This document shows positions 3,561 through 22,680 of a stretch of 64,000 bases of DNA, piece by piece (the stretch's first letter is position 1; the number at the start of each line of letters is the position of its first letter). The DNA is taken from the NCBI GenBank assembly GCA_041665025.1, contig JBAYJP010000002.1, forward strand, positions 196,820 through 260,819, written 5' to 3'. The notes below the pieces were generated by a model. It saw only the letters and a program-made list of their open reading frames with translations. It was not told the DNA's origin and did not search any database. The position numbers and the translations under genes were made by a program. Origin of the DNA: Candidatus Magasanikiibacteriota bacterium. Lineage in GTDB: Bacteria; Patescibacteriota; Patescibacteriia; Magasanikbacterales; UBA922.

Positions 3561-3622
3561 GGATCTTACTTTGTGCGCAAAGTTGATGTCCCTCCTTTCC
3601 TCCTTGTGGAACATCATGTTGA

Positions 3623-4198
3623 CTACAGCTCCCATGCGAAGTTCAGCCTGACGCCGAACATCATGAGGTCCATGTCGGTGGTGATGTTGTGAAGATAGCC
3701 GAATGGCAAGATGAGCGTGAGGTGGTCGCTGATGGGGAACGCGGGCATGACCACTGCGCCAACGATATCTTGGTCGGTTGGCGCGCCTCCATCGAAGTCA
3801 TGGACGTATCGATAGATGACCGAAATGCCGAGCAGAAGCGGGGCGTTGTTGATCTTGTAGTTCGCTCCGACCATGACCTGCAGGGCCGGTTCGAACTTCG
3901 CGAGCGACGTGGCGAATGCAGCTTCACCGAAGACACTGAAGCCTTCGCCGACCGGGACGATGAGGTCTACGCCGTGTACGATTCCGACAGGCATCCCTTC
4001 TCCCGTCTTCGTGTCCAGAACGTAGGAGATCTGATTCCCTACACCGATCTTCACCTGGGCGTTGGCTTCGCGTCCGAGGAGGCAGATACCTGTGCTGAGT
4101 ACGACGACGATGAAGAATGCAAGACTGACAAGCACCAGCCTTGCCGTCGTCTCTCCGCATGGCCGGTAGGGATCCTCGATATATTGGGGAGTCTTCAT
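3623..4198 (-). CDS. High-GC island gene: membrane-anchored/secreted beta-rich protein (N-terminal TM/signal, alternating hydrophobic beta-strand pattern, C-terminal aromatic 'NFAWEL')
   Basis: 191-aa ORF with strong SD (caGGAGAcaacaccATG); GC3-rich codon usage (GGC, GTC, CTG, ATC) unlike neighbours; TM segment LVLVSLAFFIVVVLSTGICLLG then ANA|Q. Confidence 0.6.
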   Translation of the reverse strand: MKTPQYIEDPYRPCGETTARLVLVSLAFFIVVVLSTGICLLGREANAQVKIGVGNQISYVLDTKTGEGMPVGIVHGVDLIVPVGEGFSVFGEAAFATSLAKFEPALQVMVGANYKINNAPLLLGISVIYRYVHDFDGGAPTDQDIVGAVVMPAFPISDHLTLILPFGYLHNITTDMDLMMFGVRLNFAWEL

Positions 4199-4364
4199 GG
4201 TGTTGTCTCCTGCCTGGTATTATCACCCCACAGGCTGGGTAGTTGAGAAAGAACATTTCAAGCTTGATAGCACAGTTTATCATGTAAAATTATATTTGTC
4301 AAGCATATTTAGCTAAAATAAGCTAAATAGTTCAGTATTTAACTATGATAATTTTGGTCTATAT

Positions 4365-4393
4365 TTGACAAAAATGGCTTAATCTAGTATATT
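4365..4393 (+). promoter_or_regulatory. Sigma70-like promoter for TrmB-like gene (TTGACA-17nt-TATATT), near-leaderless
   Basis: Consensus -35 TTGACA 4365-4370, 17-nt spacer, -10 TATATT 4388-4393, ATG at 4412 without SD. Confidence 0.5.
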
Positions 4394-4411
4394 TTATCTA
4401 TCATAAAAAAT

Positions 4412-5929
4412 ATGATAGAACAAGAGCTTAAACAACTTGGTTTTCATAAGAATGAGATAAAAGTTTATCTTGCGTTATTTGAATTGGGAAAGGGCAAGGC
4501 CGGCGAGATAATTGAAGCAGCTAATATTCACAGAAATTTGGTATACACCGCGCTAGATGTACTCGTTGGGCGCGGGCTTGTTACTAAAACAAATGTAAAT
4601 GGAATTGCAATGTTCACTCTTAGTTCTCCAGGTAATTTGCTAGAAGAAATTGATCACAAAAGACAATTGACTCAAAAAATTGTGGAAGAATTAAAAAGTA
4701 GGCAAGAAAAAATGTTACGTGAGATAACTATTTTTGAAGGATTTGATGGAATAAAACGAGCGACACGTCAGAATTTTCAAGCAGAAAAAGGTGAGACTGT
4801 GTATGTGCTTGGAGCTTCCACGCACGAGATTCTATCAGACTTATCTATGCGATGGCGCGCGTATGATAAAAAAAGAATAGAGAAAGGAATTGGATTTAAA
4901 GCATTGTATGGGCGAGGAACTGATCAGCACATTCTAGATGGAAAAAATGTATTACCTATGACAGAAGCAAAATACATGCCAAGCGATATTGATGCTCCGA
5001 TGTGGTTCAATATATGTGGTGATGTTAGTTCCATCGTTGCGATAGACAAAGAACCTATTGCAATCAATATAAAAAGCAAACAAATAGCAAATGGTCTAAA
5101 ACAATACTTTAATCATCTGTGGAACCAAAAAACTATAACATTTCAGGGAAATGAGGGTTTTGAAAAGGCTTTTGGTGATATATTACAAACATTACAAAGC
5201 GGAGATGAATTATTGGTTATGGGTATGTTTGATTTTGACCCAGAGTTTGCTCAAATGATTGCACAGTTTCATGAAAAGAGATCGAAAAAAGGCATTAAAG
5301 CAAAGATTTTATTGAATGAAAATGCATGCAAGCTTGGTGACATATTGAAATATTTACCACACACAAATATTAAATACATGCAAAAGGGGATTGTTACACC
5401 GGCAGTATTTCTTTTGTATAAAAACAAGACAGTAATTAGCTTGCCGAACCAAAGGACGTTCATTCAAATAGAGAATGAAGAGGCGACCGAATCGTTTCGT
5501 GTGTATTTTTACAATCTATGGAATCAAGAAGAAAGGATCTTGCAAGGTCCAGAGGCATTAAAAGAACTGTGGTTGGAAGGTATTGACACTAAAGAAATAC
5601 GATGGATTGGAGCTCGAGGTTATTTTGTGGATAATTATCCAAAATTTTTCGAGGAAATATGCCACAAAGCAGAACAGACGTCTGGTCTCAAATGTAAATT
5701 AATTATTGATCCAGGTTTTCGCGGTCATATCTTGACTCGTCTGTCATGGATTGAAACACGTTATAATTTGTCCTCAATAAAAAACCCCAATGCTGTTTGG
5801 CTTTTTGGTAATAAAGTACTTATTATAAGTTGGGCAAAAAAGGAACCAGTGATTTTCCTTACTACGAATTCTACTGTAGTACAAAGCTATAATGATTATT
5901 TTGAAGAATTGTGGAATATGAAAAAATAG
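4412..5929 (+). CDS. TrmB-family HTH transcriptional regulator with triplicated C-terminal domain
   Basis: N-terminus 'KNEIKVYLALFELGKGKAGEIIEAANIHRNLVYTALDVLVGRGLV' matches TrmB wHTH; three internal repeats ending ...YFNHLWNQK / ...YFYNLWNQEE / ...YFEELWNMKK. Confidence 0.7.
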   Translation: MIEQELKQLGFHKNEIKVYLALFELGKGKAGEIIEAANIHRNLVYTALDVLVGRGLVTKTNVNGIAMFTLSSPGNLLEEIDHKRQLTQKIVEELKSRQEKMLREITIFEGFDGIKRATRQNFQAEKGETVYVLGASTHEILSDLSMRWRAYDKKRIEKGIGFKALYGRGTDQHILDGKNVLPMTEAKYMPSDIDAPMWFNICGDVSSIVAIDKEPIAINIKSKQIANGLKQYFNHLWNQKTITFQGNEGFEKAFGDILQTLQSGDELLVMGMFDFDPEFAQMIAQFHEKRSKKGIKAKILLNENACKLGDILKYLPHTNIKYMQKGIVTPAVFLLYKNKTVISLPNQRTFIQIENEEATESFRVYFYNLWNQEERILQGPEALKELWLEGIDTKEIRWIGARGYFVDNYPKFFEEICHKAEQTSGLKCKLIIDPGFRGHILTRLSWIETRYNLSSIKNPNAVWLFGNKVLIISWAKKEPVIFLTTNSTVVQSYNDYFEELWNMKK

Positions 5930-5975
5930 AGAAACATTATTGCTATTTCAGTGCCTTTATGATTAAATCGTTTTT

Positions 5976-6779
5976 ATGTCACCTAGCAATCTAGAAATTT
6001 TGTATAAGTATCTTCAAAAAATCGAACACGTTTCTTATTTTGTTTTACCTGCAAAAGAGTCTGCAAATTGGGTGTTGGTTTTGAGGACATTATTTAGAAA
6101 GTTAAAAGAAGAAATTGGGAATGAAAAGCTACCCGAGTTTCAGGCTGTTTTTAATCTCTTGTGTGAAGATAGAATAAACGAATACAAATTAGCAAAAAAT
6201 TTACATAGTTTTCTTTTAAAATTATATACTAAATCCTTTGATCAATTCAGTAGTTTGCTCGATAACATAGAAAAAAGGTCACTGAATTTTTGGATGAGTG
6301 AAGAACAAGCATATAAGATGCGCATATCAAAAGAAAGGGTTCAAGTTGTCGAACATGATGTATCTCTTTTGCAAAATGAAATGCAGTTATATGCACTTGA
6401 TTATTTTTTTAGCATGCAAAAATGGTTTGCAACTTCTGATAACAAGCAGAAATTGGTACTAATTTTTTATGGGAAAAACAATTTACCTTCACTCAAGGAT
6501 GATGCATTGGAAGATGATATGCTTGACAAAGTTGTATACCAGATGTGGGATTGGAGATTGAAAGTCAAAATGGTGAATGATTATTTTGATTATAAAAAAT
6601 CTTTTGTTAACGCCAAAAAGGAACATATATCGGATAAACAGTTGGTTGAAATTGAAGAATCTCTGCGTCGTTATTGCAAACAGTTGCTTGATATATCAAT
6701 ACAACATGGAATTCAAAAAATTGAAAACGGATTACTGTTGCCATATGGAAATATATATCTAAACAAAATAATCTTATAA
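5976..6779 (+). CDS. Hypothetical protein (267 aa), apparently co-operonic with downstream methyltransferase (1-nt gap)
   Basis: Long ORF, no recognisable motifs; stop 6779 / next start 6781. Confidence 0.5.
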   Translation: MSPSNLEILYKYLQKIEHVSYFVLPAKESANWVLVLRTLFRKLKEEIGNEKLPEFQAVFNLLCEDRINEYKLAKNLHSFLLKLYTKSFDQFSSLLDNIEKRSLNFWMSEEQAYKMRISKERVQVVEHDVSLLQNEMQLYALDYFFSMQKWFATSDNKQKLVLIFYGKNNLPSLKDDALEDDMLDKVVYQMWDWRLKVKMVNDYFDYKKSFVNAKKEHISDKQLVEIEESLRRYCKQLLDISIQHGIQKIENGLLLPYGNIYLNKIIL

Positions 6780-6780
6780 T

Positions 6781-7929
6781 ATGAAATTTTTTGATAGAAA
6801 AGAACCTCCTAAAGAAGATGGTGGGGAAAGTGAAAAGAAAGAAAAGGCCTCGAATTTTAAGTTGAAAGATCTGTTTGCTCGTATTGTTAGAAAGATAACA
6901 AATCTTCTTTCAGCTCCATTTGGTGAATTTGGAGAAGACGAGAAAGAATTATTTGAGCGCCAATTTAATCCGCGTGAATATATTGAATTGTATTATCCAC
7001 CAATAGATAAGGAATCGGTTAAACACATTTCAGATATTTTAGCTCGCGTAGAGGTACGAGAGATGGGTGAAGATGGAGTTAAATTGACAAAGATAGATGG
7101 TAGGCTTTTGGCACGGCAGTTTGAACACGGTTCAACCGAGGGGAAATCCATCGAGTTGCTCGAAAATTATTGCATTTATGATTTTGTAGCTCGAAAGGCC
7201 TTGCCTGCAATGCTTACAAAACGACCTGAGGATCATTTTAGTGTTCTAGATGTTGGCGGTGGGCCAACGGTATATCAGCATATCCCTCTTCTTGGTGTAT
7301 CAGACAAAATTACGCACGCAGAATATTTGGAAGCAAATAGACAAGAGATTGCAACCTGGAAGCAGGAGAAAGGGTACGATTGGTCTAGTTATATCGCATG
7401 CTGGCAATCATACCTCGCACTGCATCCCGAAGCCTATTCAATGGCCATGAAAGATGTTAGAGATGTGTTAGATAATTTATCTACCAAAGATCCGAGCATT
7501 TATAATCAAGAGATGGCTAAACGTATAGAGGACGTAATACCTGTGGATGTTTTCAGCCCAAACATTCTTTCTAGCCAAGAAGGATATGATGCTGTTTCTG
7601 TAGGAAAATGGGGTTGTGTCGATTTGTTAACTTCCCATTTCTGTATAGAATCAGCTACTGCAGATCCCAATAGGTGGAGAATAGGAATAGGCAATATTGC
7701 AAAAAAAGTGAATGAGGGAGGTTTTCTTATTATGACAGCTATTCGAAATGCTGAATGGTATAAGGTGGGGGATAATAAATTACCTGCTGTTCCTGTTGAT
7801 TACACAGCCATAGCAAATGAATTGAAAAAACATGGTTTCAAAGTTCTTGAAGGTACCGAATTACTCACCCATAACCAAAAAGAAGTCGGATATGATGGTA
7901 TGATTTTTATACTCGTTCAAAAACAATAA
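6781..7929 (+). CDS. NNMT/PNMT/TEMT-family SAM-dependent small-molecule N-methyltransferase, with ~60-aa low-complexity N-terminal extension
   Basis: 'FNPREYIELYY' resembles NNMT 'FNPRDYLEKYY'; SAM motif I 'VLDVGGGPTVYQHIPL' resembles NNMT 'LIDIGSGPTIYQLLSA'. Confidence 0.65.
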   Translation: MKFFDRKEPPKEDGGESEKKEKASNFKLKDLFARIVRKITNLLSAPFGEFGEDEKELFERQFNPREYIELYYPPIDKESVKHISDILARVEVREMGEDGVKLTKIDGRLLARQFEHGSTEGKSIELLENYCIYDFVARKALPAMLTKRPEDHFSVLDVGGGPTVYQHIPLLGVSDKITHAEYLEANRQEIATWKQEKGYDWSSYIACWQSYLALHPEAYSMAMKDVRDVLDNLSTKDPSIYNQEMAKRIEDVIPVDVFSPNILSSQEGYDAVSVGKWGCVDLLTSHFCIESATADPNRWRIGIGNIAKKVNEGGFLIMTAIRNAEWYKVGDNKLPAVPVDYTAIANELKKHGFKVLEGTELLTHNQKEVGYDGMIFILVQKQ

Positions 7930-7934
7930 AACAT

Positions 7935-8483: not shown

Positions 8484-8837
8484 TTAAATAAAAAAACCGC
8501 CTCGGTCACTGCTTTTCGGCTTTATTTGTTTGAGTTTAAATAAAGCGGAGGTGAGATAGATGAAAGCAGTTTGCGCTGAGACGGTCTTTTTTAACCTTCC
8601 ATACAGATCGAGTACATAGGTAGCTAATTGAAGTTGAGTAGTTTAATATCCTCCTAATCCCCATGTTTTGTGTTTGTGTTTGTATTGTAGTTTTTACATA
8701 CGATCACCTCCTCAAAATTAATGGTAAGTTAGCTTCAGGAGATGTGCAGTCCCCTTACTGATAGTATTACTCATACAAAGTTAGTATAGTATCTCTACAT
8801 AACAAGTCAATCGCACACAACCGGGAAAGTGGATAAT

Positions 8838-8937
8838 GAGTGTATATCCTATGGATAAATAAAGGATTCTATAGTTACTCCTCGGCTCGGAAAAACAAAT
8901 GTGAATTTGCTCTTCTCTCACCTGCCTCGTAAATAAA
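8838..8937 (+). repeat. ~95-nt repeat element copy A (second copy at 38075-38160, opposite strand); contains GNRA hairpin caaat-GTGA-atttg
   Basis: ~90% identity with revcomp of 38075-38160, including 'TAGTTACTCCTCGGCTCGGAAAA' and 'TTCTCTCACCTGC'; followed directly by terminator. Confidence 0.7.
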
Positions 8938-8939
8938 AA

Positions 8940-8965
8940 ATACTGAACTGATTCAGTATTTTAGT
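8940..8965. terminator. Bidirectional intrinsic terminator (aatactgaa-ctga-ttcagtatt + T-tract)
   Basis: Perfect 9-bp inverted repeat flanked by A/T tracts, between repeat element and tRNA-Leu. Confidence 0.65.
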
Positions 8966-8968
8966 GTG

Positions 8969-9052
8969 TGCCGCGGGCGGGAATCGAACCCGCACTCTCT
9001 TGCGAGAAAGGGATTTTAAGTCCCTCGTGTATACCAGTTTCACCACCGCGGC
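8969..9052 (-). tRNA. tRNA-Leu (anticodon TAA), type II with long variable arm
   Basis: Manual fold: acceptor GCCGCGG/CCGCGGC, anticodon loop CTTAAAA, variable arm hairpin TCTC-GCAA-GAGA, T-arm GCGGG-TTCGATT-CCCGC; CCA not encoded. Confidence 0.8.
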
Positions 9053-9103
9053 ATGTCTAAATTATTGAGAAAATCATACCATATACTTGTGAAGATATCA
9101 AGG

Positions 9104-9132: not shown

Positions 9133-9174
9133 CCCTCTTACTTTTATTGTAGAATTACTTTATATTTAAGTTAT

Positions 9175-11123: not shown

Positions 11124-11163
11124 CGTAACTTTATAACTTTACAACTTTCGACTTTATAACTTC
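11124..11163 (+). repeat. Tandem heptad/octad array 'nnAACTTT' (gtaACTTTataACTTTacaACTTTcgACTTTataACTTc); related copy on opposite strand at 17424-17462
   Basis: Direct visual repeat; ~34/38 identity with revcomp of 17424-17462. Confidence 0.6.
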
Positions 11164-11164
11164 A

Positions 11165-12384: not shown

Positions 12385-12451
12385 TATAGAAATTGGAAAT
12401 TAGGGAAAGAAAATATTGAAAAAATATTGGGATATTGAGATATTATTAAAC

Positions 12452-12484
12452 AAAAAACCTCCGCTATAAACGGTAGGTTTTTTG
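12452..12484 (+). terminator. Intrinsic terminator after rlmI (aaaaaacctccg-ctataaa-cggtaggtttttt)
   Basis: Stem with one bulge followed by T-tract. Confidence 0.6.
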
Positions 12485-12582
12485 TCCTGTTTGTGCACAA
12501 GTTAGGTGTGCCGGTTTTTTACATGCCCACGGCCGCATGGATGACCAGTCCTTGCTAGTCTTTCCTCCTTGTGTGATGATGG

Positions 12583-13017
12583 TTACTTCCAGTACTGCTC
12601 GAAGTATTTTTCCATGCTCATGAAGTCAACCTGAAGTTCAATACCAAACCCGTAAGCGTAAGTAAAGTAACTGAAGACGCACAGTTGGTCATAATCGTAG
12701 GGAGAGTTGAGCTTGTGGGAGAGAGCCTCTTCCACATAACTCTCCGTGATTTCGATTACGACTCTTCCATCTTGCTTTGTGAATTCTTCTTCCCTTTTAG
12801 TGAGTTCCTCCCACTCTCTTTGACTTGTTACCTTTCCATGGGGCAAGAGTCCTGCTTCTTGCAGGAGTTTTGCCGTGCCCAGCACGAGATGAGGGGTTGA
12901 ACCTGGCATTACTTCCTCTCCCTGTTGTTGAGAACGTGGCGTAACCAGATATCGGTCCCGTCGTTTTACGGCTGATGGGACGGCGAAAAGAACATAGAAC
13001 CATCCGGGGTCGGTCAA
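12583..13017 (-). CDS. High-GC island gene 2b: hypothetical protein (144 aa)
   Basis: GC-rich codons; ATGA start/stop overlap with upstream gene; 'CTTTCCTCCTTGTG' motif 10 nt past stop as in island 1. Confidence 0.5.
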   Translation of the reverse strand: MTDPGWFYVLFAVPSAVKRRDRYLVTPRSQQQGEEVMPGSTPHLVLGTAKLLQEAGLLPHGKVTSQREWEELTKREEEFTKQDGRVVIEITESYVEEALSHKLNSPYDYDQLCVFSYFTYAYGFGIELQVDFMSMEKYFEQYWK

Positions 13018-13439
13018 ACGGAAAACCTAAAAGGATTTCTTTCGAAGATATTGCTTACATCTTTCTCCGTCTCTTTACCAGCGGAATTGTGCTTCCACAT
13101 GATCTTGTCACCGATCTGCGTGAATTCGCTGTTGATGGGGATGTAATTGATGACCGAACCAGTCACCCATGGGGTAGATCCTTCTTGGACATGTGCGAAT
13201 TCAGTTTCACCGTCGTCCAGAAGACGGTAGACGACCAACTCGTACGAGAATTGACGTACTTCAACGCCAATTGAAAACGCCTGTGGACCCTCTACCTCTT
13301 TCTTGTCAATCAGAAGGAGCAGGAACAGAAAACCCCACCCAATTTTTTCGTTGAATCCAAACCCTTCGCAGCTGTACGCCGACCTTGCGTCCATGATTTT
13401 TCTTTCAGCTTCCTTGCGACGCTCCCTCAGGCTTTTCAT
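13014..13439 (-). CDS. High-GC island gene 2a: hypothetical protein with one hydrophobic segment (start taken at internal Met with GGGAG SD; ORF extends to 13466)
   Basis: 'GGGAGtcaccaaATG' SD before Met10; GC-rich codon usage; hydrophobic 'IGWGFLFLLLLI'. Confidence 0.5.
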   Translation of the reverse strand: MKSLRERRKEAERKIMDARSAYSCEGFGFNEKIGWGFLFLLLLIDKKEVEGPQAFSIGVEVRQFSYELVVYRLLDDGETEFAHVQEGSTPWVTGSVINYIPINSEFTQIGDKIMWKHNSAGKETEKDVSNIFERNPFRFSV

Positions 13440-13620
13440 TTGGTGACTCCCCCATTTCGGGTACATTTTGCAGGCATTGGTGCCTACAGTGTTGCCTTCC
13501 CTGTGAAGAGGATATTATATAGTAATATGATATTTGACAAGAGTATACGTCTTAATAAATTTATAATTTTGTCATAAATAAGCTAATTTTCTTGTTAATA
13601 AAATATATTGTCGGAATAGA

Positions 13621-13658: not shown

Positions 13659-14456
13659 ATGAACCCACAACTATATAAACAACTCCAAGATGTTGGCTTG
13701 CAGGATAATGAGGCAAAGGTATACCTGGCCTTACTTGAGATTGGTAGGGGAACAGTTACCCAAATTAGCAGCCGTGCAGGTATGAACCGCACAACTGGCT
13801 ATGATATTTTGGAGCGTCTTAGTTTGCACGGACTTGTAAATCCAGTTATTACAAGCAAAAAGAAAAGAATATATGTGCCTGAACCACCTATACGCCTCAA
13901 ACAATTTTTGGAAAATAAAAAACGGCAAGCAGAGCGTCGTTTGAATGAAATCGGTTCATTATTACCAGAGTTGCAGGCGCTGTATAAGACCGAGCTGAAA
14001 CCAGTAATTAAGGTTGCGGAAGGAAAAAATGCTATGCAAAAGCTCTATATGAATGTAACTGAATCAAACAGCACTATATATTCTATATTGAATTTGAAAG
14101 GGTATGCGGAAGCATTTGATGAAATGGGAACAATACAGTCTGAAGAACGATTTAAAAAGGGAATAAAAGAAAAATGTTTGGCCGTGGATAGTGAAGTTGC
14201 GCGATGGTGGCATGATAAAACGTACAAAAAACAAAGTAAGGCTCGACAGGAGAATACAACATACCACTGGTTGCCGTGGGATGACCGGTACAAAACTGCA
14301 GGGGAAGTTAATATATTTGATGATAAAGTAATAGGCGTGCTATCTAAACCTGAAGAGAGTATAGCGTTTGAGATTCAAAGTCAGACTTTTGCTGACTTTT
14401 TGAAATTAGTTTTTGAGATGGCTTGGAAGAATACAAAAGGAAAAAACTCGGAATAG
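13659..14456 (+). CDS. TrmB-family HTH transcriptional regulator (single C-terminal domain), paralog of 4412-5929
   Basis: 'DNEAKVYLALLEIGRGTVTQISSRAGMNRTTGYDILERLSLHGLV' TrmB wHTH; C-terminal ends 'FADFLKLVFEMAWKN' like repeat ends of the other paralog. Confidence 0.7.
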   Translation: MNPQLYKQLQDVGLQDNEAKVYLALLEIGRGTVTQISSRAGMNRTTGYDILERLSLHGLVNPVITSKKKRIYVPEPPIRLKQFLENKKRQAERRLNEIGSLLPELQALYKTELKPVIKVAEGKNAMQKLYMNVTESNSTIYSILNLKGYAEAFDEMGTIQSEERFKKGIKEKCLAVDSEVARWWHDKTYKKQSKARQENTTYHWLPWDDRYKTAGEVNIFDDKVIGVLSKPEESIAFEIQSQTFADFLKLVFEMAWKNTKGKNSE

Positions 14457-14482
14457 AGTAAAAATGGAGAATGTGATATAAT

Positions 14483-14569
14483 ATGTACGAAATGCGAAAA
14501 CTTCGAAAGGTGCGAAAATGGCGATTTCGAATTTTTCGTAGATTTCGTGTTTCGTACATACATTAAAAT
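14483..14569. repeat. Palindromic TACGAAA-repeat element (terminal IRs atgtacgaaa...tttcgtacat); family member also at 57659-57734
   Basis: 10-bp perfect terminal inverted repeat plus internal cgaaa/tttcg words; sits in 5' leader of membrane-protein gene. Confidence 0.65.
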
Positions 14570-15651: not shown

Positions 15652-17418
15652 ATGCCGACCGGTCTCCCATCCATTGATGATTTAATTCCAAAAAAAACTA
15701 GTTTACCAACGGATGATTCTTCGGTTACTCAAAAAACAGCCGTACCGCTCAATGTCTCCCAGTCAGGTGCTGAAGAAAAATTTGGTAAAAAAATGGATGA
15801 AATAAAAAAGAAAGAACTGGAGACAGAAGCCATGCGCTTTGCTTCGCAAATTGGTGTACCGCACGTTGATCTCAAAAAATTTCCTGTTACTCACGAAGCG
15901 CTTAAGCAAGTTCCGCTCGAGACCGCAAAAGAATTGGGAGTTGTCTGTTTTTATGCAGATCAAGATGAACTGCGTTTTGGCGCTATTGATCCTACTCTCG
16001 ATGAGGTGAAGACTCTCATAGAAGAAGCCAGCGCTCGCTATCATGCAAACAGCGTAGTGTATGTCGTATCTGAGGTAAGTTTGGAAAGAGTATTGGAAAT
16101 GTATAAAGGCATGCCTACCATAAAAGCAATTAGCAAAGATATTGAAATTACCGCAGAGAGCCTGGATAATGTAAAAGCGCAGGTGGATGATTTTAAAACA
16201 GTAGATGAGCTTCTTCAGAAAAGTACCACGACAGATATTATTACTATTCTACTTGGTGCGGCGCTCAAAGTTGACGCATCAGACATCCATGTTGAAGCAG
16301 AGCAAGACAAGGTGGCTATTCGTTTTCGTTTGGATGGTATTTTGCATGATGTTTCCATGTTGCCCAAAGACATGCTGCATCAGCTCCTGTCGCGTATCAA
16401 ACTTACTTCATCGCTTAAAATTAACATTACTGACAAACCGCAAGACGGACGTTTTACCATAAAACTTGAAACTGGTGATGTAGATGTCCGTGTGTCAACT
16501 ATTCCGACTGTATTTGGAGAAAGTGTTGTCTTGCGTCTTCTCATGCAACACCAGGAAGGAATTTCTCTTGATGGACTTGGATTTTCACAGCGTGCCCTTG
16601 ATATTATTCGGCAAGAAATTTCTCGTCCGAATGGTATGATTATCACTACTGGTCCGACCGGAAGTGGTAAATCTACGACATTGTATGCGGTTTTGAAAAT
16701 TTTGAATAAGCCAGGTGTGAAAATTATTACGCTTGAAGATCCGGTGGAATATCGTCTTGAGGGAATCAACCAAAGCCAAATAGAACATGAGAAAGGATAC
16801 ACATTTGCAAAAGGATTGCGCTCAATTTTACGTCAAGATCCAGATATCGTCATGGTCGGAGAAATTCGTGATGGAGAAACAGCTGAAATTGCTATCCAGG
16901 CCGCATTGACCGGGCATCTGATGCTTTCTACATTGCATACCAACAGTTCTGCAGGTTCAATTCCCCGTTTGCTTTCTATGGGTGCGCAGTCATTTTTGCT
17001 GGCGCCAGCACTCAACTGTGCTATGGGACAGCGACTTGTACGGCGTGTATGTTCGACATGTCGAAAACAAGTTGCATTGTCAGCTATGGCGCCGCATGTT
17101 CAGGAACGAGCACAAAAAAATATTGAACTTATGCCAGAAACAGAACGAACAAAATTTTCTCAAAAAGAACTTTTGTTTTATACCTCAGTAGGATGCAAGG
17201 ATTGCAATGGTATCGGATACAAGGGGCGCATAGGAATATGTGAAATTTTCCAGGTTACCGATGAAATTAAAGATTTAATTTTGTCAGGCGTTGCGGCTGA
17301 ACATGAGATAGAAGATCATGCACGCAAACAAGGTATGACAACTATGGTTCAAGATGGTATACTTAAAGCCGCGGAAGGAATTACGACATTGGATGAAATA
17401 TTTCGTGTTATTGATTAA
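15652..17418 (+). CDS. pilB: Type IV pilus / type II secretion assembly ATPase (PilB/GspE family)
   Basis: Walker A 'GPTGSGKSTTLYA', 'GEIRD' , C-terminal Cys4 'CSTCRK...CKDCNGIGYKGRIGICE'. Confidence 0.9.
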   Translation: MPTGLPSIDDLIPKKTSLPTDDSSVTQKTAVPLNVSQSGAEEKFGKKMDEIKKKELETEAMRFASQIGVPHVDLKKFPVTHEALKQVPLETAKELGVVCFYADQDELRFGAIDPTLDEVKTLIEEASARYHANSVVYVVSEVSLERVLEMYKGMPTIKAISKDIEITAESLDNVKAQVDDFKTVDELLQKSTTTDIITILLGAALKVDASDIHVEAEQDKVAIRFRLDGILHDVSMLPKDMLHQLLSRIKLTSSLKINITDKPQDGRFTIKLETGDVDVRVSTIPTVFGESVVLRLLMQHQEGISLDGLGFSQRALDIIRQEISRPNGMIITTGPTGSGKSTTLYAVLKILNKPGVKIITLEDPVEYRLEGINQSQIEHEKGYTFAKGLRSILRQDPDIVMVGEIRDGETAEIAIQAALTGHLMLSTLHTNSSAGSIPRLLSMGAQSFLLAPALNCAMGQRLVRRVCSTCRKQVALSAMAPHVQERAQKNIELMPETERTKFSQKELLFYTSVGCKDCNGIGYKGRIGICEIFQVTDEIKDLILSGVAAEHEIEDHARKQGMTTMVQDGILKAAEGITTLDEIFRVID

Positions 17419-17423
17419 TGATT

Positions 17424-17462
17424 AGTTATAAAGTTGAAAGTTGTAAAGTTATAAAGTTCGAA
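17424..17462 (-). repeat. AACTTTAT heptad array, inverted copy of 11124-11163
   Basis: revcomp = ttcgaactttataactttacaactttcaactttataac. Confidence 0.6.
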
Positions 17463-17473
17463 TTGGCAAATTG

Positions 17474-17508
17474 ATATGTGATGTGTGCTATGTGATATGT
17501 GAAATATG
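17474..17508 (-). repeat. Heptad 'nTAnCAC' repeat array (4 copies) upstream of 17576 gene
   Basis: minus strand reads tttCACatatCACatagCACacatCACatat. Confidence 0.5.
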
Positions 17509-17575
17509 TTGAGATACATAGAGATAAATTGAGATAAAATTTTCGAAAATCAATATTTAATATTTTTAAAACGCT

Positions 17576-18730: not shown

Positions 18731-18742
18731 ATATACAACATA

Positions 18743-18793
18743 TACGAACTACGAAAGGTACGAAATTACGAAAGTGGAGATTACGAAGACGAA
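18743..18793 (+). repeat. Five direct TACGAAA repeats immediately upstream of thrS promoter -35
   Basis: tacgaac-tacgaaa-ggtacgaaa-ttacgaaa-...-tacgaagacgaa. Confidence 0.6.
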
Positions 18794-18796
18794 TAT

Positions 18797-18825
18797 TTGA
18801 CAGTTTTATAAATAATAGTTAAGAT
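18797..18825 (+). promoter_or_regulatory. Candidate promoter for thrS leader (TTGACA-17-TAAGAT)
   Basis: Consensus -35, 17-nt spacer, weak -10. Confidence 0.4.
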
Positions 18826-18830
18826 GTACC

Positions 18831-18987
18831 TGTCAGCGATTGATGCGTCTACCACACGCATGCCTGTGAAGGTTTCTTTTGAACTAAGCTGACACCAATC
18901 CAACGAGTTAAACTGCTGGGTGGAAACGTCCTAAGGACCCCGGTATATAATTCTAATACTATTAGAGTTATATACCGGGTTTTTTTA
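18831..18987 (+). promoter_or_regulatory. Candidate T-box-like riboswitch leader (Thr ACC specifier hairpin, GGGTGG T-box-like motif, intrinsic terminator) upstream of thrS
   Basis: Hairpin atgcgt-CTACCAC-acgcat (18843-18861) presents ACC; 'ctGGGTGGaaacg' 18916-18928 precedes 21-bp terminator stem 18937-18979 + T7 tract. Confidence 0.4.
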
Positions 18988-19035
18988 TTAAATTTTAAAT
19001 TAGAAATTAAGACTTATATATTTAATTAAATTAAT

Positions 19036-20814
19036 ATGGAAAATGACAAACTAGAAGCCCTTCGCCATAGTTGTGAGCACGTCCTCACCATGGCCATGCT
19101 TCGCATCTGGGGAAATAAAGTAAAAGCAGCTATGGGCCCGGCAACGGATGATGGATTTTATTTTGATTTTGATTCAGAAATAAAGATATCTGAAGAAGAT
19201 TTTGCAAAGATTGAAAAAGAAATGGCGAAGATTATAAAAGAAAATTTGTCTATTGCCAAAGATGAAATGACTGTAGCAGAAGCCAGAGAATTTTTTAATT
19301 CAAATATATACAAAGGAAATGAATATAAACACGAATGGCTCGATGAAATAGAAGGACGTGGAGAAAAAGTGAGTGTATACTGGATGGGAGAAAAAGGAGG
19401 GGATATCCCACATACGTTTGTAGATATTTGTGCTGGTCCTCACCTAGAATCAACGGGTAAAATCGGCGTATTCAAACTTCTCAAGGTCGCGGGTGCATAC
19501 TGGCATGGAGATGAGAAAAATAAAATGTTGCAACGCATTTATGGTACTGCATTTGGAACCCAGGAAGAACTCGATGAATATGTATCCATGCTTGAAGAAG
19601 CAAAGAAACGAGATCATAAAAAGTTAGGCAAAGAACTTGATTTGTTTACGTTCTCGGAATTAGTTGGTGCTGGTTTACCATTGTGGACGCCCAAAGGTAC
19701 ATTATTGCGAAATACATTGGATAATTTTGTGTGGGAATTGCGCCAGGCAAAAGGGTATCAAAAAGTAACTATTCCTCACATTACCAAAAAGGATTTGTAC
19801 GAAACGAGCGGGCATTGGGCAAAATTTTCAAACGATCTATTCAAAATTCAAACTAGAGAGGGCCATGAATTTGCGATGAAGCCTATGAATTGTCCTCATC
19901 ATACACAGATTTATGCCCACATACCTCGAAGTTATCGCGATCTGCCTCAGCGATACGCAGAGACAACAATGGTATATCGCGATGAACAGACAGGGGAATT
20001 AAATGGATTATCACGAGTACGCTGTATTACTCAAGACGATGCACACGTATTTTGTCGCGAGTCTCAGCTTAGAGATGAATTCTATGCGATTTGGGATATT
20101 ATTGAAACCTTTTATGCGGCGTGTGGTTTCCCTGCATTAAAAATTCGATTGTCTTTGTCTGACCCGGAACACATGGAAAAATATTTGGGAAGTAAAGAAC
20201 AGTGGGATAAAGCAGAAAGTCAGTTGCGACAATTTATTACTGACCGAGGAGCTACATTTTTTGAAGCCGTAGGCGAGGCTGCATTCTATGGTCCAAAGAT
20301 TGATTTTATGGCCAAAGATTCTCTTGGCAGAGAGTGGCAAGTGGCAACAATCCAGGCTGATCGCAGTATGCCACAGAGTTTTGATTTGTTTTGCAACAAT
20401 GAAGAGGGAGAACAGGAACGAATTGTCATGATTCATGCGGCTATTATGGGTTCGATTGAACGATTTCTGTCAGTCTTGATTGAACACCATGGTGGCGCCT
20501 TTCCGGTATGGCTTTCGCCCGTGCAAGTTCATTTTGCTCCGGTATCTTCCAAACATGTCGAGGGTGCAAAAAACATAGCACAAGAATTTTCTGACTTGGG
20601 CATTCGCATCGCACTTGACGATGCGGACGAAACTGTTGGAAACAAAGTACGCAAAGCCGTGGCGCAAAAAGTTCCCTACATCGTAGTTGTTGGTGACAAA
20701 GAAATTGCAGGAGAAGACTTTATGATACGCGTTCGAGGCATTGAAAAACAAGAGAAGATGGCGAAGGATGTGTTTGTTGAAAGAGTGTTGAGTGAAATAA
20801 AAGAGAGAAAATAA
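19036..20814 (+). CDS. thrS: Threonyl-tRNA synthetase lacking N-terminal TGS domain
   Basis: Editing motifs 'RHSCEH' and 'CAGPH', class II catalytic core, anticodon-binding C-terminus; 592 aa. Confidence 0.9.
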   Translation: MENDKLEALRHSCEHVLTMAMLRIWGNKVKAAMGPATDDGFYFDFDSEIKISEEDFAKIEKEMAKIIKENLSIAKDEMTVAEAREFFNSNIYKGNEYKHEWLDEIEGRGEKVSVYWMGEKGGDIPHTFVDICAGPHLESTGKIGVFKLLKVAGAYWHGDEKNKMLQRIYGTAFGTQEELDEYVSMLEEAKKRDHKKLGKELDLFTFSELVGAGLPLWTPKGTLLRNTLDNFVWELRQAKGYQKVTIPHITKKDLYETSGHWAKFSNDLFKIQTREGHEFAMKPMNCPHHTQIYAHIPRSYRDLPQRYAETTMVYRDEQTGELNGLSRVRCITQDDAHVFCRESQLRDEFYAIWDIIETFYAACGFPALKIRLSLSDPEHMEKYLGSKEQWDKAESQLRQFITDRGATFFEAVGEAAFYGPKIDFMAKDSLGREWQVATIQADRSMPQSFDLFCNNEEGEQERIVMIHAAIMGSIERFLSVLIEHHGGAFPVWLSPVQVHFAPVSSKHVEGAKNIAQEFSDLGIRIALDDADETVGNKVRKAVAQKVPYIVVVGDKEIAGEDFMIRVRGIEKQEKMAKDVFVERVLSEIKERK

Positions 20815-20836
20815 GTAGCTAAGTTCCGACATTACT

Positions 20837-21670
20837 ATGCTACATAAAAAAATAGTTTGGTTTATTGCACTACTACTAATAGTTTGTGCAAGTATTTTTG
20901 TACGGCATATTGATAAGAGATCTGCCGAAAAAGTCGTATATTTTCTTCCGCACCAAGATGATGAAATGGTGTTGCTCGGTTCTGTATACAATAATGTGAA
21001 GCAGGGGAAAGAGGTATATACGATTATGGTAGCAGATGGTGGGGGATCTTATATTATTGATGTGTTGAATGGAGAAGAATACTGTAAATTGCATAAGAAA
21101 TTTCATAAGCCTGAAGAAGAAGGTTACAAGACGATAACACGAAAAGAATTTAGTGCAGCGCGTAATGATGAATATGCCCGTACCATGAAATCTATTGGCG
21201 TGCCAGAAAATAATATTCTATTTGCAAATCCAGGAGGTAAAGATGGCAGTGACGAACCGTGGTACAGAGATAATGAATTAACACAAGAACAAGCTAAAGA
21301 AGTCATTCAAAGTTTTTATGATTTAGTTGGAAAGGGTACATATGTCACACTTGCGTCTGAGCAAAATGAATCAGATTTCCCACACAGCGATCATATTGTT
21401 ATTGAGCGTGCTTTAAAACAGTTTTCCGCCCAAGGCGGATCCACTTTGGGCGGAGATAAAGTTGCAAATAAATTATTTTTTGCAGACAGAGAAAATTCTG
21501 CCATTGCCATAGACTTGCTGGAGGATGTACAAAAAGCAAAAGCACTAGCCTTGCAAGAATATTCAGTCTGGAAACCAGAAGAAGGGAAGTTTGCGATTGG
21601 GAGGCATTCGATATTGGATAGGTTGAAGTTGTGGGGAGAGAGCGCGAGGGAGTTTGTGATTGGGAATTAA
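20837..21670 (+). CDS. PIG-L/LmbE family deacetylase with N-terminal TM/signal
   Basis: 'FLPHQDDE' matches PIG-L 'HPDDE' zinc motif region; 277 aa. Confidence 0.55.
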   Translation: MLHKKIVWFIALLLIVCASIFVRHIDKRSAEKVVYFLPHQDDEMVLLGSVYNNVKQGKEVYTIMVADGGGSYIIDVLNGEEYCKLHKKFHKPEEEGYKTITRKEFSAARNDEYARTMKSIGVPENNILFANPGGKDGSDEPWYRDNELTQEQAKEVIQSFYDLVGKGTYVTLASEQNESDFPHSDHIVIERALKQFSAQGGSTLGGDKVANKLFFADRENSAIAIDLLEDVQKAKALALQEYSVWKPEEGKFAIGRHSILDRLKLWGESAREFVIGN

Positions 21671-21704
21671 GATATTGGGAAAATATTGGATATTAGGATA
21701 TTTT

Positions 21705-21731
21705 AAAAGACAGCCTGGAAGGGCTGTTTTG
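21705..21731 (+). terminator. Intrinsic terminator (aaaagacagcc-tggaag-ggctgtttt)
   Basis: 6-bp stem + T-tract after PIG-L gene. Confidence 0.6.
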
Positions 21732-21733
21732 TA

Positions 21734-21762
21734 TTGACAAATAGATTTTTTAATGATAGGCT
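21734..21762 (+). promoter_or_regulatory. Candidate promoter reading into GC island 3 (TTGACA-17-TAGGCT)
   Basis: Consensus -35 at 21734-21739; weak -10. Confidence 0.3.
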
Positions 21763-21894
21763 AGCCCATCGTTTAAAAAAGAACGAAATAAGTTTGTATA
21801 AGATGTAAATTTATTTTGTCCTTTTTATTTTTGCTCAGTCGGGTACCTTAGCCCCGCCAGCGTGACGCGGCGGGTTTGACCGAGGAGTGTTGAG

Positions 21895-22107
21895 TTGAAA
21901 AAGATCGAGTTGAGGTCCCAAGCGGACCCGATGTCGCCGGCGCTTCCGCCGGCATGGTTCGTGATTACCGTCGAGGGGGAGGAGGTCTTCGATACGTTTC
22001 GGTTCGCGAGCGGTTGTGCGGCCGGAGTCGCTTTGGGCCAAATTCAGAGACACGGTCACGCCGAAATGCTCGACGAGGCTCGTCGTCTCTATGAGTGCTT
22101 CGTGTAG
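21895..22107 (+). CDS. High-GC island gene 3a: small hypothetical protein (70 aa, TTG start, GAGGAG SD)
   Basis: GC3-rich; 'GAGGAGtgttgagTTG'; stop TAG embedded in 17-bp hairpin. Confidence 0.45.
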   Translation: MKKIELRSQADPMSPALPPAWFVITVEGEEVFDTFRFASGCAAGVALGQIQRHGHAEMLDEARRLYECFV

Positions 22108-22142
22108 CTGGACGGGACAAAATCCCCCGTCCAGCTACACGA
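22100..22142 (+). other. Perfect 17-bp stem hairpin (tcgtgtagctggacggg-acaaaatcc-cccgtccagctacacga) between island-3 genes
   Basis: Exact reverse complementarity verified by hand; overlaps stop of gene 3a and abuts ATG of gene 3b. Confidence 0.8.
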
Positions 22143-22513
22143 TGCGTCTCGAGAAGAACGGTGAGCGCGAGACGCTCGTTGTGGAGGGACAGCGAACCCT
22201 TCACGACGGGCGGGTCAAGCACTTCGAGACCCGAAGCGTCGAGTGGCTCACCGGTCAGACGACCGAGCCGATCGGGACGGGAACTAAGTTCCTCGGTGTT
22301 CTTGGTGGGGAGGAGGAATTCCTCTTCCGTCCCATGCCCGTTTTCGGCGTCCCCGGTCGCTTGCTGTCTCGGGCCGGTCTGCTCGACTTCCTCCGCGACC
22401 GGGGTGTCGCGACGTCGGTCGACACACGGAGATGGCGTGAGGCCGAAAAGTCCGACGGCGACCCGGAAGACGAGGACTTGGCCGGGGCCGACGACCCTGT
22501 CTCCGGGGACTAG
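22142..22513 (+). CDS. High-GC island gene 3b: hypothetical acidic-tailed protein (124 aa)
   Basis: GC3-rich codon usage; in-frame ORF extends upstream to 22016 but overlaps gene 3a. Confidence 0.45.
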   Translation: MRLEKNGERETLVVEGQRTLHDGRVKHFETRSVEWLTGQTTEPIGTGTKFLGVLGGEEEFLFRPMPVFGVPGRLLSRAGLLDFLRDRGVATSVDTRRWREAEKSDGDPEDEDLAGADDPVSGD

Positions 22514-22526
22514 CCCGCGCTGAAGT

Positions 22527-22550
22527 CGCGCCTGCCTTCGGGCGGACGCG
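22527..22550 (+). other. UUCG-tetraloop hairpin (cgcgcctgcc-ttcg-ggcggacgcg) just after gene 3b stop
   Basis: 10-bp stem with one mismatch/one GU, cUUCGg loop. Confidence 0.5.
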
Positions 22551-22649
22551 ATAGAAGCGTGTGGCTGCAACAACGGCCGGCGCGTGTGATTCGATCGCAC
22601 GTCGCCGGCCAGGAGTTCAGTGTCCTGATGTACATCGGGATAGTGAATT

Positions 22650-22679
22650 AAAAACATCCCGTCATGGAGGGATGTTTTT
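22650..22679. terminator. Bidirectional intrinsic terminator (aaaaacatccc-gtcatggag-ggatgttttt)
   Basis: 7-bp stem flanked by A5/T5. Confidence 0.65.
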
Positions 22680-22680
22680 G

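Follow-up and report, generated by a model that had tools for sequence, protein, structure and literature searches.

Three GC-rich islands in an AT-rich Candidatus Magasanikbacteria genome are long-lived small genes and may be resident transcription units

The 64-kb window analysed here, the whole stretch of DNA taken from a Candidatus Magasanikbacteria MAG (39.3% GC overall), contains three GC-rich islands, which are long-lived, compositionally odd small genes and neither RNA genes nor chimeras. On balance, we lean slightly towards the view that they are genuine resident transcription units of Patescibacteria and not recent foreign inserts. Judging from the predicted transcript ends, the transcript of each island would start at a native sigma-70-type promoter, which is AT-rich, and stop at a native terminator, and the GC-rich portion would be the transcribed body only (CDS and 3'UTR). 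Islands 1 and 2 probably each form the cargo of a TrmB-family regulator and are transcribed divergently from it, the cargo being a secreted OmpX-like 8-stranded beta-barrel (ISL1) and a small membrane-anchored protein pair (ISL2a/b), respectively. Island 3 appears to be a rearranged split copy of the gene for a 170-185-aa protein, with an AT-rich leader hairpin and a two-hairpin 3' element.

Composition and boundaries of the islands

Maximum-likelihood change-points and the composition profile placed the GC-rich blocks of islands 1, 2, and 3 at 3588-4239 (minus strand; 56.7% GC against 36.9% in the flanks), 12458-13511 (minus strand; 48.1% against 34.4%), and 21840-22613 (plus strand; 64.2% against 36.7%), respectively. 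These edges lie about 40 nt or less from those of the preliminary description, which had located three islands at these places; its value of about 58% GC for each is not borne out for island 2 (48%) and island 3 (64%), with flanks of about 36%. The islands thus differ in GC level (48, 57, and 64%), as different donors would give, and this counts against resident units. Outside the islands, no 400-nt window across the whole 64 kb exceeds 0.47 GC, and a fourth GC-rich island is situated immediately left of the window. The strongly atypical composition described earlier is evident in sliding and change-point GC as well as in per-gene GC3, and codon usage is indeed unlike that of the neighboring genes: GC3 is 0.74 in ISL1, 0.56 and 0.50 in the two ORFs of island 2, and 0.72 and 0.77 in those of island 3, against 0.26-0.41 in the remaining 47 window ORFs of at least 100 aa. 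No strand skew was found in the islands by the composition profile.

The GC-rich tract extends from a point within about 0-30 nt of the predicted transcription start to the terminator. In island 1 it spans the 5'UTR, CDS, and 3'UTR of ISL1, and at six other loci it comprises the CDS and 40-200 nt of 3'UTR. Bracketing of the islands by terminators had been proposed. Hairpin/T-run terminators are present at 3532-3561, around 12455-12480, and 22649-22680, the first two being usable bidirectionally (hairpin plus T-run), but on their right side islands 1 and 2 are bounded by a promoter/operator. Likewise, the proposed Shine-Dalgarno sequences GGAGA, GGGAG, and GAGGAG precede ISL1, ISL2a, and ISL3a, but ISL3b lacks one.

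The island ORFs are genuine coding sequences, as had been suggested. The codon-position order is GC3 > GC1 > GC2, a coding-type pattern, and the protein sequence is kept in relatives despite saturated synonymous sites. Both observations leave only a very slim chance that the islands are non-coding, whether as genes for GC-rich structured RNAs or as junk in which ORFs arose by chance. GC-rich DNA yields long ORFs in all frames, ISL2a has no homolog by any search (word-index search and full HMMER scan), and island 3 carries strong hairpins, all of which would suit such an explanation; it is opposed further by the confident ISL1 fold and by the lack of any Rfam match to the islands at the gathering cutoff or with a convincing E-value.

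Islands 1 and 2 face TrmB-family regulators

ISL1 (3623-4198, minus strand; 191 aa) has an N-terminal signal/TM helix with a site between ANA and Q, followed by an 8-stranded beta-barrel, an OmpX/Ail-like fold predicted with confidence from a 33-sequence alignment. Its sequence identity to the 8-stranded barrels of OmpX, Ail, NspA, and OmpA-N is 5-18%, and no Pfam OMP family scored above its cutoff (YfaZ, E = 0.009). Those barrels belong to the outer membrane, whereas the phylum of the ISL1 organism is generally considered to have neither an outer membrane nor BAM. The ISL1 3'UTR contains the SD-like 14-mer CACAAGGAGGAAAG (3595-3608, minus strand), which recurs unchanged behind island 2 in the ISL2b 3'UTR (12560-12573, minus strand); these are the only two copies within the window, and a similar motif is found 3' of the L087 homolog. 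The terminator hairpin at 3532-3561, with T-runs on both strands, is common to the RNR gene (plus strand) and ISL1 (minus strand). Upstream, the predicted sigma-70-type promoter at 4274-4302 (minus strand; TTGACA, 17 nt, TG-extended TAAACT) shares its architecture with L087 and L089 and, in a looser form, with L091. Between the divergent promoters lies the operator-like motif TTTAGCTTATTTTAGCTAAA (4309-4326), which is found at both islands 1 and 2 as well as in L086, L087, L089, and L091. A TrmB-family regulator (4412-5929, plus strand; 505 aa, 35% GC; Pfam TrmB E = 1.6e-12) is divergent to ISL1.

The full HMMER scan gave 32 remote homologs of ISL1, and the three homolog clusters with an organism name are all Patescibacteria. 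A TrmB gene (about 500 aa) is the divergent neighbor in seven of ten ISL1 contexts. The TrmB partners range from 294 to 658 aa and are mutually 25-42% identical, so that no DNA homology is available for recombination; the divergence of TrmB was set against that of ISL1 in five cases, too few to demonstrate co-inheritance. The ISL1-family gene is GC-richer than its neighbors in the window (.571 against.35-.43), L088 (.643 against.468), L089 (.571 against.40-.46), L095 (.625 against.34-.42), and L096 (.603 against.39-.44), with a smaller excess in L091 and L092. The excess is absent from L087 and L093, which counts against resident units. L004 lacks the entire TrmB505-ISL1 block, and one ISL1 homolog adjoins an IS200-type Y1 transposase.

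In island 2, the upstream gene ISL2a (13014-13439, minus strand; 141 aa) is followed by ISL2b (12583-13017, minus strand), which has 144 aa if read from a TTG start and 108 aa if the ATG at 12909 is used. The overlap of this pair, previously read as ATGA, is TTGA, with the TTG start over the TGA stop (13014-13017). The predicted promoter (13512-13540, minus strand; TTGTCA, 17 nt, TAATAT) and an operator-like AATAAGCTAA core (13577-13586) lie upstream, and a 265-aa TrmB-family regulator (13659-14456, plus strand; Pfam E = 2.8e-15) is divergent to the island, with 62-64% identity to its orthologs in L003 and L086. The full HMMER scan found three clear homologs of ISL2b and the repeat protein P0017; the C-terminal domain of ISL2b recurs in P0013, P0016, and P0024. 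In L086, the ISL2b homolog adjoins TrmB262 (64% identity) in the same TrmB-divergent layout, and the island there has 50-56% GC against 38%. At least one slot varies between relatives, as a liv ABC-transporter operon occupies the island-2 slot in the sister genome UBA11699.

A conserved TTAGC-type operator at the -35 box would join each TrmB/cargo pair, and the regulator may bind this predicted operator, switching the cargo on or off. The archaeal TrmB regulator is encoded beside trehalose/maltose ABC-transporter genes. It shares with the TrmB proteins here an N-terminal TrmB HTH, a larger C-terminal part, and a position beside the presumed target, and the orthologous regulators in L003 (sister genome) are divergent to ABC-transporter binding-protein genes, like archaeal TrmB. 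Unlike in archaea, the presumed targets here are small secreted or membrane proteins.

Island 3 stays GC-rich through saturated synonymous divergence

Upstream of island 3 lies an AT-rich leader hairpin (AAAAAGAACGAAAT...) followed by a U-run (21776-21826, plus strand; z = -3.5), an exact 13-mer of which is also found 5' of both L005 cassettes. ISL3a (21895-22107, plus strand; 70 aa) matches the N-terminal half of single-gene homologs, and ISL3b (22142-22513, plus strand; 123 aa), which has an acidic tail, matches their C-terminal part. What had been taken for two small acidic proteins are actually halves of one gene that is single in relatives. The 17-bp hairpin noted between them is real, a perfect inverted repeat with a 9-nt loop (22100-22142, plus strand; -38.4 kcal/mol, z = -8.8) that covers the ISL3a stop and ISL3b start codons. 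The two-hairpin 3' element (22562-22653, plus strand) consists of a GC hairpin (GGCCGGCGCGTGTGATTC..GCACGTCGCCGGCC) and then an AT-looped hairpin, and is conserved, with nine pairs showing compensatory changes. The right edge is marked by a terminator hairpin at 22649-22680, called on the plus strand only; a convergent 242-aa gene terminates just past it.

One ISL3 homolog was found by the full HMMER scan, and ISL3b is 44% identical to L005 13831-14373. UBA11699 (L003 and L005) has a GC-rich island (GC3.80-.82) with an ISL3 homolog in the same slot between PIG-L and SAHH. Identity at 4-fold sites between the window and UBA11699 is.33-.42 in the flanking genes (.27 by chance) and.25 in the island gene (.31 by chance), and GC4 of the island-3 gene stays at.69 and.75 despite this saturation. 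The high GC has outlived complete synonymous-site turnover, which argues that it is not a donor signature.

The preliminary description had favored the view that the islands came recently from a high-GC donor, conceivably a host, and these data do not support it. Homologs of the island proteins, at best 24-54% identical and present in metagenome or MAG contigs only, are named only as Patescibacteria and are GC-rich in TrmB slots too. Island 3 sits at the same locus with similar GC in a sister genome with saturated 4-fold sites, an outcome that description had itself named as contrary to import. Since the homologs are GC-rich islands in other AT-rich genomes, the genes appear to be ancestral and compositionally odd. 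That a high-GC bacterium outside CPR, such as an episymbiont's host, recently donated the islands is accordingly quite improbable: atypical composition, sharp edges, and the outer-membrane-type beta-barrel fold of ISL1, typical of diderm bacteria, would fit it, but no island-protein homolog was found in named organisms outside Patescibacteria (word-index and HMMER searches), homologs lie in Patescibacteria-type neighborhoods, the sister genome has island 3 as well, and the three islands have three GC levels.

Although the source is a metagenome assembly, the splicing of foreign GC-rich reads into a Patescibacteria contig deserves hardly any credence, the least of all the alternatives. The junctions of island 1 and the fourth island are identical in a 440-kb ENA contig (MEGAHIT-type) and in a Logan contig from another run, and the island-3 protein is also listed for a separate NCBI MAG contig (278 kb, cluster-table entry only). 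Two chimeric joins per island would be needed while collinearity is kept, and homologous islands occupy the same slots across unrelated datasets.

Lateral exchange within the phylum

A fairly recent lateral gain, with a Patescibacterium of higher GC (about 50-65%) as the donor and native home of the families, is possible but on the unlikely side. A promoterless unit would have been placed behind a resident promoter, and its GC would be the unameliorated donor signature. The island slots differ among relatives, and ISL1-family GC equals the background in two GC-richer loci, L091 and L093, and comes close to it in L092, as such flux would predict. The Y1 transposase neighbor also speaks for it, as do L005 and L085, where tandem arrays of unrelated GC-rich ORFs each end in the two-hairpin element, of which related DNA totalling about 1 Mb yielded just five copies. 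These arrays, together with island 3, lend some support to the earlier notion of a GC-rich cassette family. No amelioration signature is seen in GC1, GC2, and GC3, as very recent import likewise predicts. Genomic islands have been reported in Patescibacteria, and HGT there is mostly within the phylum (PMC12455944), in line with this account.

Such flux, however, needs transfers that recur in several genomes, always raise the GC, and each time land precisely behind the same operator-promoter. The units are heterogeneous, with an AT-rich leader, operator, or regulator and a GC-rich body, even between the tandem L005 and L085 cassettes, which again argues that the GC is not a donor signature. Two independent insertions would be required for island 3, which occupies one shared locus in the two sister genomes and has a synonymous divergence saturated like that of the flanks. 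No donor above 54% identity was found among 15 billion proteins by the word-index search, which returned self matches alone, and the full HMMER scan. No recombinase was found nearby, and no integrase, transposase, or tRNA target lies beside any window island. Lateral turnover would fit the liv operon in the UBA11699 slot, the absence of the block from L004, and the Y1 transposase neighbor, all of which count against resident units.

Comparison with known systems

Compositionally atypical genomic islets are reportedly explained as horizontally acquired in the Lawrence-Ochman amelioration framework. The islands here share their sharp GC/GC3 discontinuity, small accessory genes, and variable presence in relatives (island 2 slot). 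Unlike such islets, they lack mobility genes, att sites, and a tRNA target, their homologs are on Patescibacteria contigs wherever the source names the organism, and several genomes carry these genes, likewise GC-rich, in matching slots; GC-richness persisting through saturated synonymous divergence is not predicted by the amelioration model.

Integron cassettes resemble the L005 and L085 units in their tandem unrelated small ORFs, each ending in a conserved imperfect palindrome, and in a cargo composition unlike the chromosome, and resemble islands 1 and 2 in lying behind a resident promoter beside a divergent gene. This gene encodes the IntI tyrosine recombinase in integrons, whereas it encodes a TrmB transcription factor here. 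Moreover, RYYYAAC/GTTRRRY core sites were not recognised by eye, Rfam gave no convincing family match, and each unit here has its own AT-rich leader, unlike integron cassettes.

In the very AT-rich genome of Borrelia, the vls antigenic-variation locus encodes a surface protein and is GC-rich, and its cassettes are bordered by GC-rich repeats. Its GC-rich 17-mer repeats have been mentioned (PMC3905847). In both cases a secreted/surface-protein locus is far GC-richer than its AT-rich genome, plausibly via recombination, but silent paralogous cassette arrays, GC skew, and gene-conversion evidence are absent from the islands here.

For resident transcription units, the high GC would be heritable within these gene families, with an AT-rich regulator, operator, or leader and a GC-rich body in each co-inherited unit. 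No known mechanism keeps single genes at GC3 0.7-0.8 in a 39% GC bacterium, which weighs against this reading. A GC-favoring force may act on the transcribed unit, the preferred candidate being selection on an mRNA property (e.g., stability or translation rate) and the alternative GC-biased gene conversion, and cargo turnover in the slots would be superimposed on this force.

Composition and boundaries of the GC-rich islands

The window, part of a Candidatus Magasanikbacteria (Patescibacteria/CPR) MAG (NCBI locus tags WCW16_02495 and onward; also present as a 440-kb ENA contig), has 39.3% GC overall, and a sliding profile combined with a maximum-likelihood change-point fit delimited three GC-rich islands: island 1 on the minus strand (3588-4239, 56.7% GC vs 36.9% in the flanks; gene ISL1, 191 aa), island 2 on the minus strand (12458-13511, 48.1% vs 34.4%; genes ISL2a and ISL2b) and island 3 on the plus strand (21840-22613, 64.2% vs 36.7%; genes ISL3a and ISL3b). 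The positions in the preliminary description, made by a model from the sequence alone, agree with these change-points within about 40 nt, but its value of about 58% GC does not hold for island 2, which is about 48%. Codon usage is unlike that of the neighbors, as had been described, with GC3 of 0.50-0.77 in island ORFs vs 0.26-0.41 in native ORFs. With 48-64% GC against about 36%, the islands show the atypical composition and sharp edges by which horizontally transferred islands are recognized, and no comparable GC-rich stretch occurs elsewhere in the 64 kb. A fourth GC-rich island (62-63% GC) lies about 3 kb to the left of window position 1, at 16900-17650 of contig L001; it carries a 186-aa ORF (16944-17504) without Pfam, PHROGs or PADLOC match, has a DUF1294 gene and efp as neighbors, and ends at its 3' side in a long hairpin with an AT-rich loop.

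The terminators, Shine-Dalgarno (SD) sequences and 17-bp hairpin described earlier are real. The overlap of the two island-2 genes reads TTGA instead of ATGA, ISL3b lacks the SD that had been credited to the island ORFs, and the islands are not all bracketed by terminators, since at islands 1 and 2 the edge on the promoter side is no terminator. At its start, the GC-rich tract agrees to about 0-30 nt with the predicted transcription start, and its end is at the terminator; at six other loci it likewise takes in the CDS and 40-200 nt of 3'UTR. Native AT-rich signals therefore drive the island genes. The exact 14-mer CACAAGGAGGAAAG, with a perfect SD-like AAGGAGG, occurs on the minus strand at 3595-3608 and 12560-12573, 14-20 nt past the stop codons of ISL1 and ISL2b, with no third copy in the 64 kb; the similar ACAAAAGGAGGACGAAAGGAG follows an ISL1 homolog in contig L087. 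This 14-mer could be a 3'UTR element or the leftover of a downstream gene start. Short-period word repeats lie between stop codons and terminators (12390-12445, 21670-21705, 14482-14560, 11127-11161 / 17424-17458, 17471-17502 / 26246-26277 / 49094-49125), and each intergenic region has a word of its own (GATATT, ACGAAA, AACTTT, GTGATATG); some return in inverted orientation at distances of kilobases (35 nt at 97%), and the sister genome conserves the GATATT type.

Homologs of the island proteins

Searches with Pfam, NCBIfam, PHROGs and PADLOC gave nothing above cutoff for any island protein, and a word-index protein search returned self matches only. The view of these proteins as true ORFans, suggested by the latter search, was overturned by an exhaustive HMMER scan of the five concatenated island proteins against 1.84 billion representatives. 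The scan identified 32 homologs of ISL1 (126-189 aa, most 159-181, at 24-35% identity), three homologs of the ISL2b C-terminal domain (35-44% identity) together with the 1019-aa repeat protein P0017, and a single 167-aa protein, P0028, that spans both ISL3a and ISL3b; ISL2a had no homolog among these representatives. Three clusters carry an organism name, each "Patescibacteria group bacterium". No close homolog was found in a plausible high-GC donor lineage, the HMMER identities being 24-54% and the named sources solely Patescibacteria.

Island slots in related genomes

The sister genome UBA11699 is represented by two contigs, L003 (GTDB genome UBA11699, RlmI 87% identical to that of the window) and L005 (a JGI contig, ThrRS 90% identical), which were taken as one organism because of their identical BLAST statistics against the window. 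In this genome the slot of island 3, between a PIG-L-family gene and the adenosylhomocysteinase gene, holds a 1.6-kb GC-rich island with GC3 of.80-.82, whose second ORF (L005 13831-14373) is homologous, without interruption, to ISL3a and ISL3b together and whose last 170 nt at the 3' side share 76% identity with the window. The recent acquisition from a high-GC donor that had been proposed is contradicted by this homologous, equally GC-rich island at the same locus, the very observation that its proponent had set as grounds for abandoning it. At four-fold degenerate sites of conserved residues, the flanking genes of the two genomes are near saturation (identity.33-.42 vs a chance level of about.27) and the island-3 gene is fully saturated (.25 vs.31), and the island-3 gene still has a GC4 of.69 and.75 in the two genomes despite this saturation. 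Relatives retain the island protein sequence while the synonymous sites are saturated.

Not every slot is kept. While island 3 is present in UBA11699, island 2 is absent there: homology ends directly behind the terminator of RlmI, and the slot up to the TrmB ortholog is taken by a liv ABC-transporter operon of five genes. Island 1 is absent in the more distant L004, which lacks the whole block 3561-7933; this block comprises island 1, the regulator gene TrmB505, an ORF of 267 aa and a gene for an NNMT/PNMT-like methyltransferase. In L004, the very next gene after that for the B12-dependent ribonucleotide reductase is the one for cob(I)alamin adenosyltransferase. At 4200-7000 of the window, GC is unusually low (30-36%).

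GC-rich genes beside TrmB regulators

Islands 1 and 2 are each divergent to a gene of a TrmB-family regulator, with an N-terminal TrmB winged-helix domain (PF01978) in TrmB505 (4412-5929, plus strand, 505 aa; E = 1.6e-12) and TrmB265 (13659-14456, plus strand, 265 aa; E = 2.8e-15). A PLD-like match in the TrmB C-terminus (E = 0.02) raised the possibility of a recombinase, which was discarded, as this is the expected fold of the TrmB effector domain. A TrmB gene (294-658 aa) is the divergent neighbor of the ISL1 family in 7/10 recovered genomic contexts (the window, the P0007 contig, L087, L088, L089, L091 and L095, as opposed to L092, L093 and L096), and the ISL2b homolog P0024 lies downstream of TrmB262, which is 64% identical to TrmB265. 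The intergenic regions share an architecture, in which a TTAGC-type motif (TTTAGCTTATTTTAGCTAAA in the window) stands next to the TTGACA -35 box of an island-directed promoter with a TG-extended -10, and a further strong promoter is directed at the TrmB gene. The conserved TTAGC-type motif is a candidate operator. As a general predictor of GC-rich cargo the motif was rejected, as the L007 sites and a second L089 site have ordinary GC downstream.

The GC excess recurs with the family. ISL1-family genes reach.571 in the window (neighboring genes.35-.43),.643 in L088 (.468),.571 in L089 (.40-.46),.625 in L095 (.34-.42),.603 in L096 (.39-.44),.561 in L091 (.50-.52) and.721 in L092 (.57-.70), while those of L087 and L093 have no GC excess. 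The L086 counterpart of island 2 has 50-56% GC vs 38%. High GC is thus a property of the gene family, and the partner TrmB genes are ordinary in composition, so the heterogeneity sits within the conserved unit. In L087, whose ISL1 homolog has no GC excess, the neighboring TrmB505 ortholog (194-1312) is broken into two ORFs, of 294 aa and 74 aa, and is possibly a frameshifted pseudogene. Sharp GC-rich islands with different, larger cargo, such as a 577-aa membrane protein with GC3 0.90, were also observed in other Patescibacteria loci fetched via ThrRS (57-75% GC on backgrounds of 35-49%: L012 961-2763, L021 2260-3993, L038 18156-19195, L010/L011 483-2650 and L011 16200-16920), and such islands appear widespread in the phylum.

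A predicted outer-membrane-type barrel in island 1

An AlphaFold2 model of ISL1 built from a 33-sequence alignment (pLDDT 90.5; the single-sequence model, at pLDDT 36, was of no use) begins with a signal/TM helix and continues as an 8-stranded barrel. Its closest structural matches are small outer-membrane barrels, with concordant Foldseek results, and the predicted eight antiparallel transmembrane strands that close the barrel are those of the OmpX/Ail type. No curated outer-membrane protein family includes ISL1, the best Pfam match being a sub-threshold YfaZ (16.1 bits vs a cutoff of 23) and NCBIfam giving none. The lineage is generally considered to have no outer membrane, and the modeled barrel could insert into the outer membrane of a host or mark an unrecognized envelope layer. 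We propose that ligand-responsive TrmB regulators would bind the TTAGC-type operator and control the divergent genes, that is, the secreted OmpX-like barrel of island 1 and the small membrane-anchored proteins of island 2. Orthologous TrmB regulators adjoin ABC-transporter binding-protein genes in UBA11699, which fits an uptake or envelope regulon.

The island-3 unit and the test for mobile cassettes

A pair of hairpins 3' of GC-rich ORFs is common to the window (one copy), L005 (two copies, in tandem units) and L085 (two copies), the last being a 1.5-kb contig of three GC-rich ORFs with AT-rich spacers between them. The first hairpin has the GC-rich stem GGCCGGCGCGTGTGATTC...GCACGTCGCCGGCC and the second has an AT-rich loop, with compensatory changes in 9/31 pairs of the element. 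An AT-rich hairpin starting AAAAAGAACGAAA lies ahead of the unit in the window and of both units in L005, with a looser version before the second ORF of L085, and the ORFs within one array are mutually unrelated. The idea of GC-rich mobile cassettes is thereby partly borne out, by the two-hairpin units of island 3 alone; no recombinase is nearby, and each unit has its own AT-rich leader. One cassette end common to all islands was rejected, as a covariance model of the two-hairpin element, run over about 1 Mb of related loci, recovered just the five copies used to train it and had no match at islands 0, 1 and 2. A phage origin was likewise discarded, the hairpin pattern being absent from viral contigs. 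Set against the pattern of an integron attC site, the island-3 element is an imperfect palindrome with one bulged base, in which no attC core sites (RYYYAAC...GTTRRRY) were recognized by eye, and Rfam gave no match above noise at 21650-22720. Unlike an integron, with its IntI integrase and array of attC sites, the window has a single two-hairpin element and no integrase among the neighbors identified in the first 26 kb.

The island-3 gene of the window is rearranged, in that ISL3a matches homolog residues 1-73 and ISL3b matches from about residue 55 to the end, and the ISL3a stop codon and the ISL3b start codon both fall within a perfect inverted repeat of 17 bp (22100-22142). The gene may be decaying or split. 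Used as a profile against solved structures, the ISL3 alignment had no meaningful match. An 18-bit group II D5-like Rfam match on the 17-bp hairpin was judged to be chance.

The neighbors at 1-26 kb, largely identified by Pfam (except at 14.5-21 kb and 23.4-26 kb), BLAST to relatives or reading of the sequence, include no recombinase, no tRNA is adjacent to the islands as a target, and no direct repeats were found flanking them. The sole mobility gene seen beside any island is an IS200/IS605-type Y1 transposase gene (L096 130-576), which directly precedes an ISL1-family gene that is GC-rich. The two arms of an inverted repeat of 81 nt (88% complementary) lie near tRNA genes, one (8866-8946) beside tRNA-Leu (8968-9052) and the other (38075-38155) about 200 nt from tRNA-Ser (38356-38443).

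The islands are neither an artefact nor RNA. Both junctions of island 1 and of the fourth island are identical in a Logan contig (SRR6484324) and a 440-kb ENA contig, two assemblies whose reads are possibly common; a separate NCBI MAG contig (278 kb) is on record in the cluster table for the island-3 protein, and homologous islands occupy the same slots in unrelated datasets. The codon-position GC of the island ORFs is coding-like, and Rfam found three tRNAs and nothing else at the gathering cutoff, with noise on each island at E <= 1.

Origin of the GC-rich composition

The reading least compatible with these data is a single, recent import from a high-GC host, because the named homologs are solely Patescibacteria, the promoters and operators are native, slots and composition are conserved, and an island persists in the sister genome. 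Another origin is repeated exchange of promoterless cargo within the phylum, from GC-richer lineages. The slots do turn over, as with the liv operon of UBA11699 and the missing block of L004, GC-richer genomes carry these families at background composition, and published horizontal transfer in Patescibacteria is mostly within the phylum (PMC12455944). However, such exchange requires that many GC-upward transfers landed behind the same promoter in the absence of DNA homology, the TrmB partners being just 25-42% identical, and we consider it less probable. We favor resident genes whose transcribed body is held GC-rich by a local force, at about even probability, because an AT-rich regulator, operator or leader accompanies a GC-rich body wherever the unit is found and the synonymous sites of island 3 have all turned over in place. 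Candidates for the force on such resident genes are selection on some property of the mRNA and GC-biased conversion at surface-protein loci prone to recombination, for which the Borrelia vls locus offers a parallel.

A broader proposal, which we put forward tentatively, is that AT-rich Patescibacteria may actively keep a few transcription units GC-rich by mRNA selection or biased gene conversion, one of them being the TrmB-controlled OmpX/Ail-like barrel. If true, the GC richness of these units would reflect a long-lived compositional state specific to the gene rather than past horizontal transfer, and composition in these tiny genomes would be shaped gene by gene by some force. Atypical GC is a standard flag for recent horizontal transfer and is routinely used in genomic-island calling and in cleaning CPR MAGs of "contamination". 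Here the flag misleads, as the genes are apparently confined to the phylum, have native promoters and conserved slots, and kept their composition through saturating divergence. If this is general, island callers and MAG decontamination would wrongly discard real Patescibacteria genes that are possibly relevant to host interaction. The family of TrmB-linked OmpX-like barrels provides a concrete, testable entry point to the envelope or the host interface of these uncultured bacteria.
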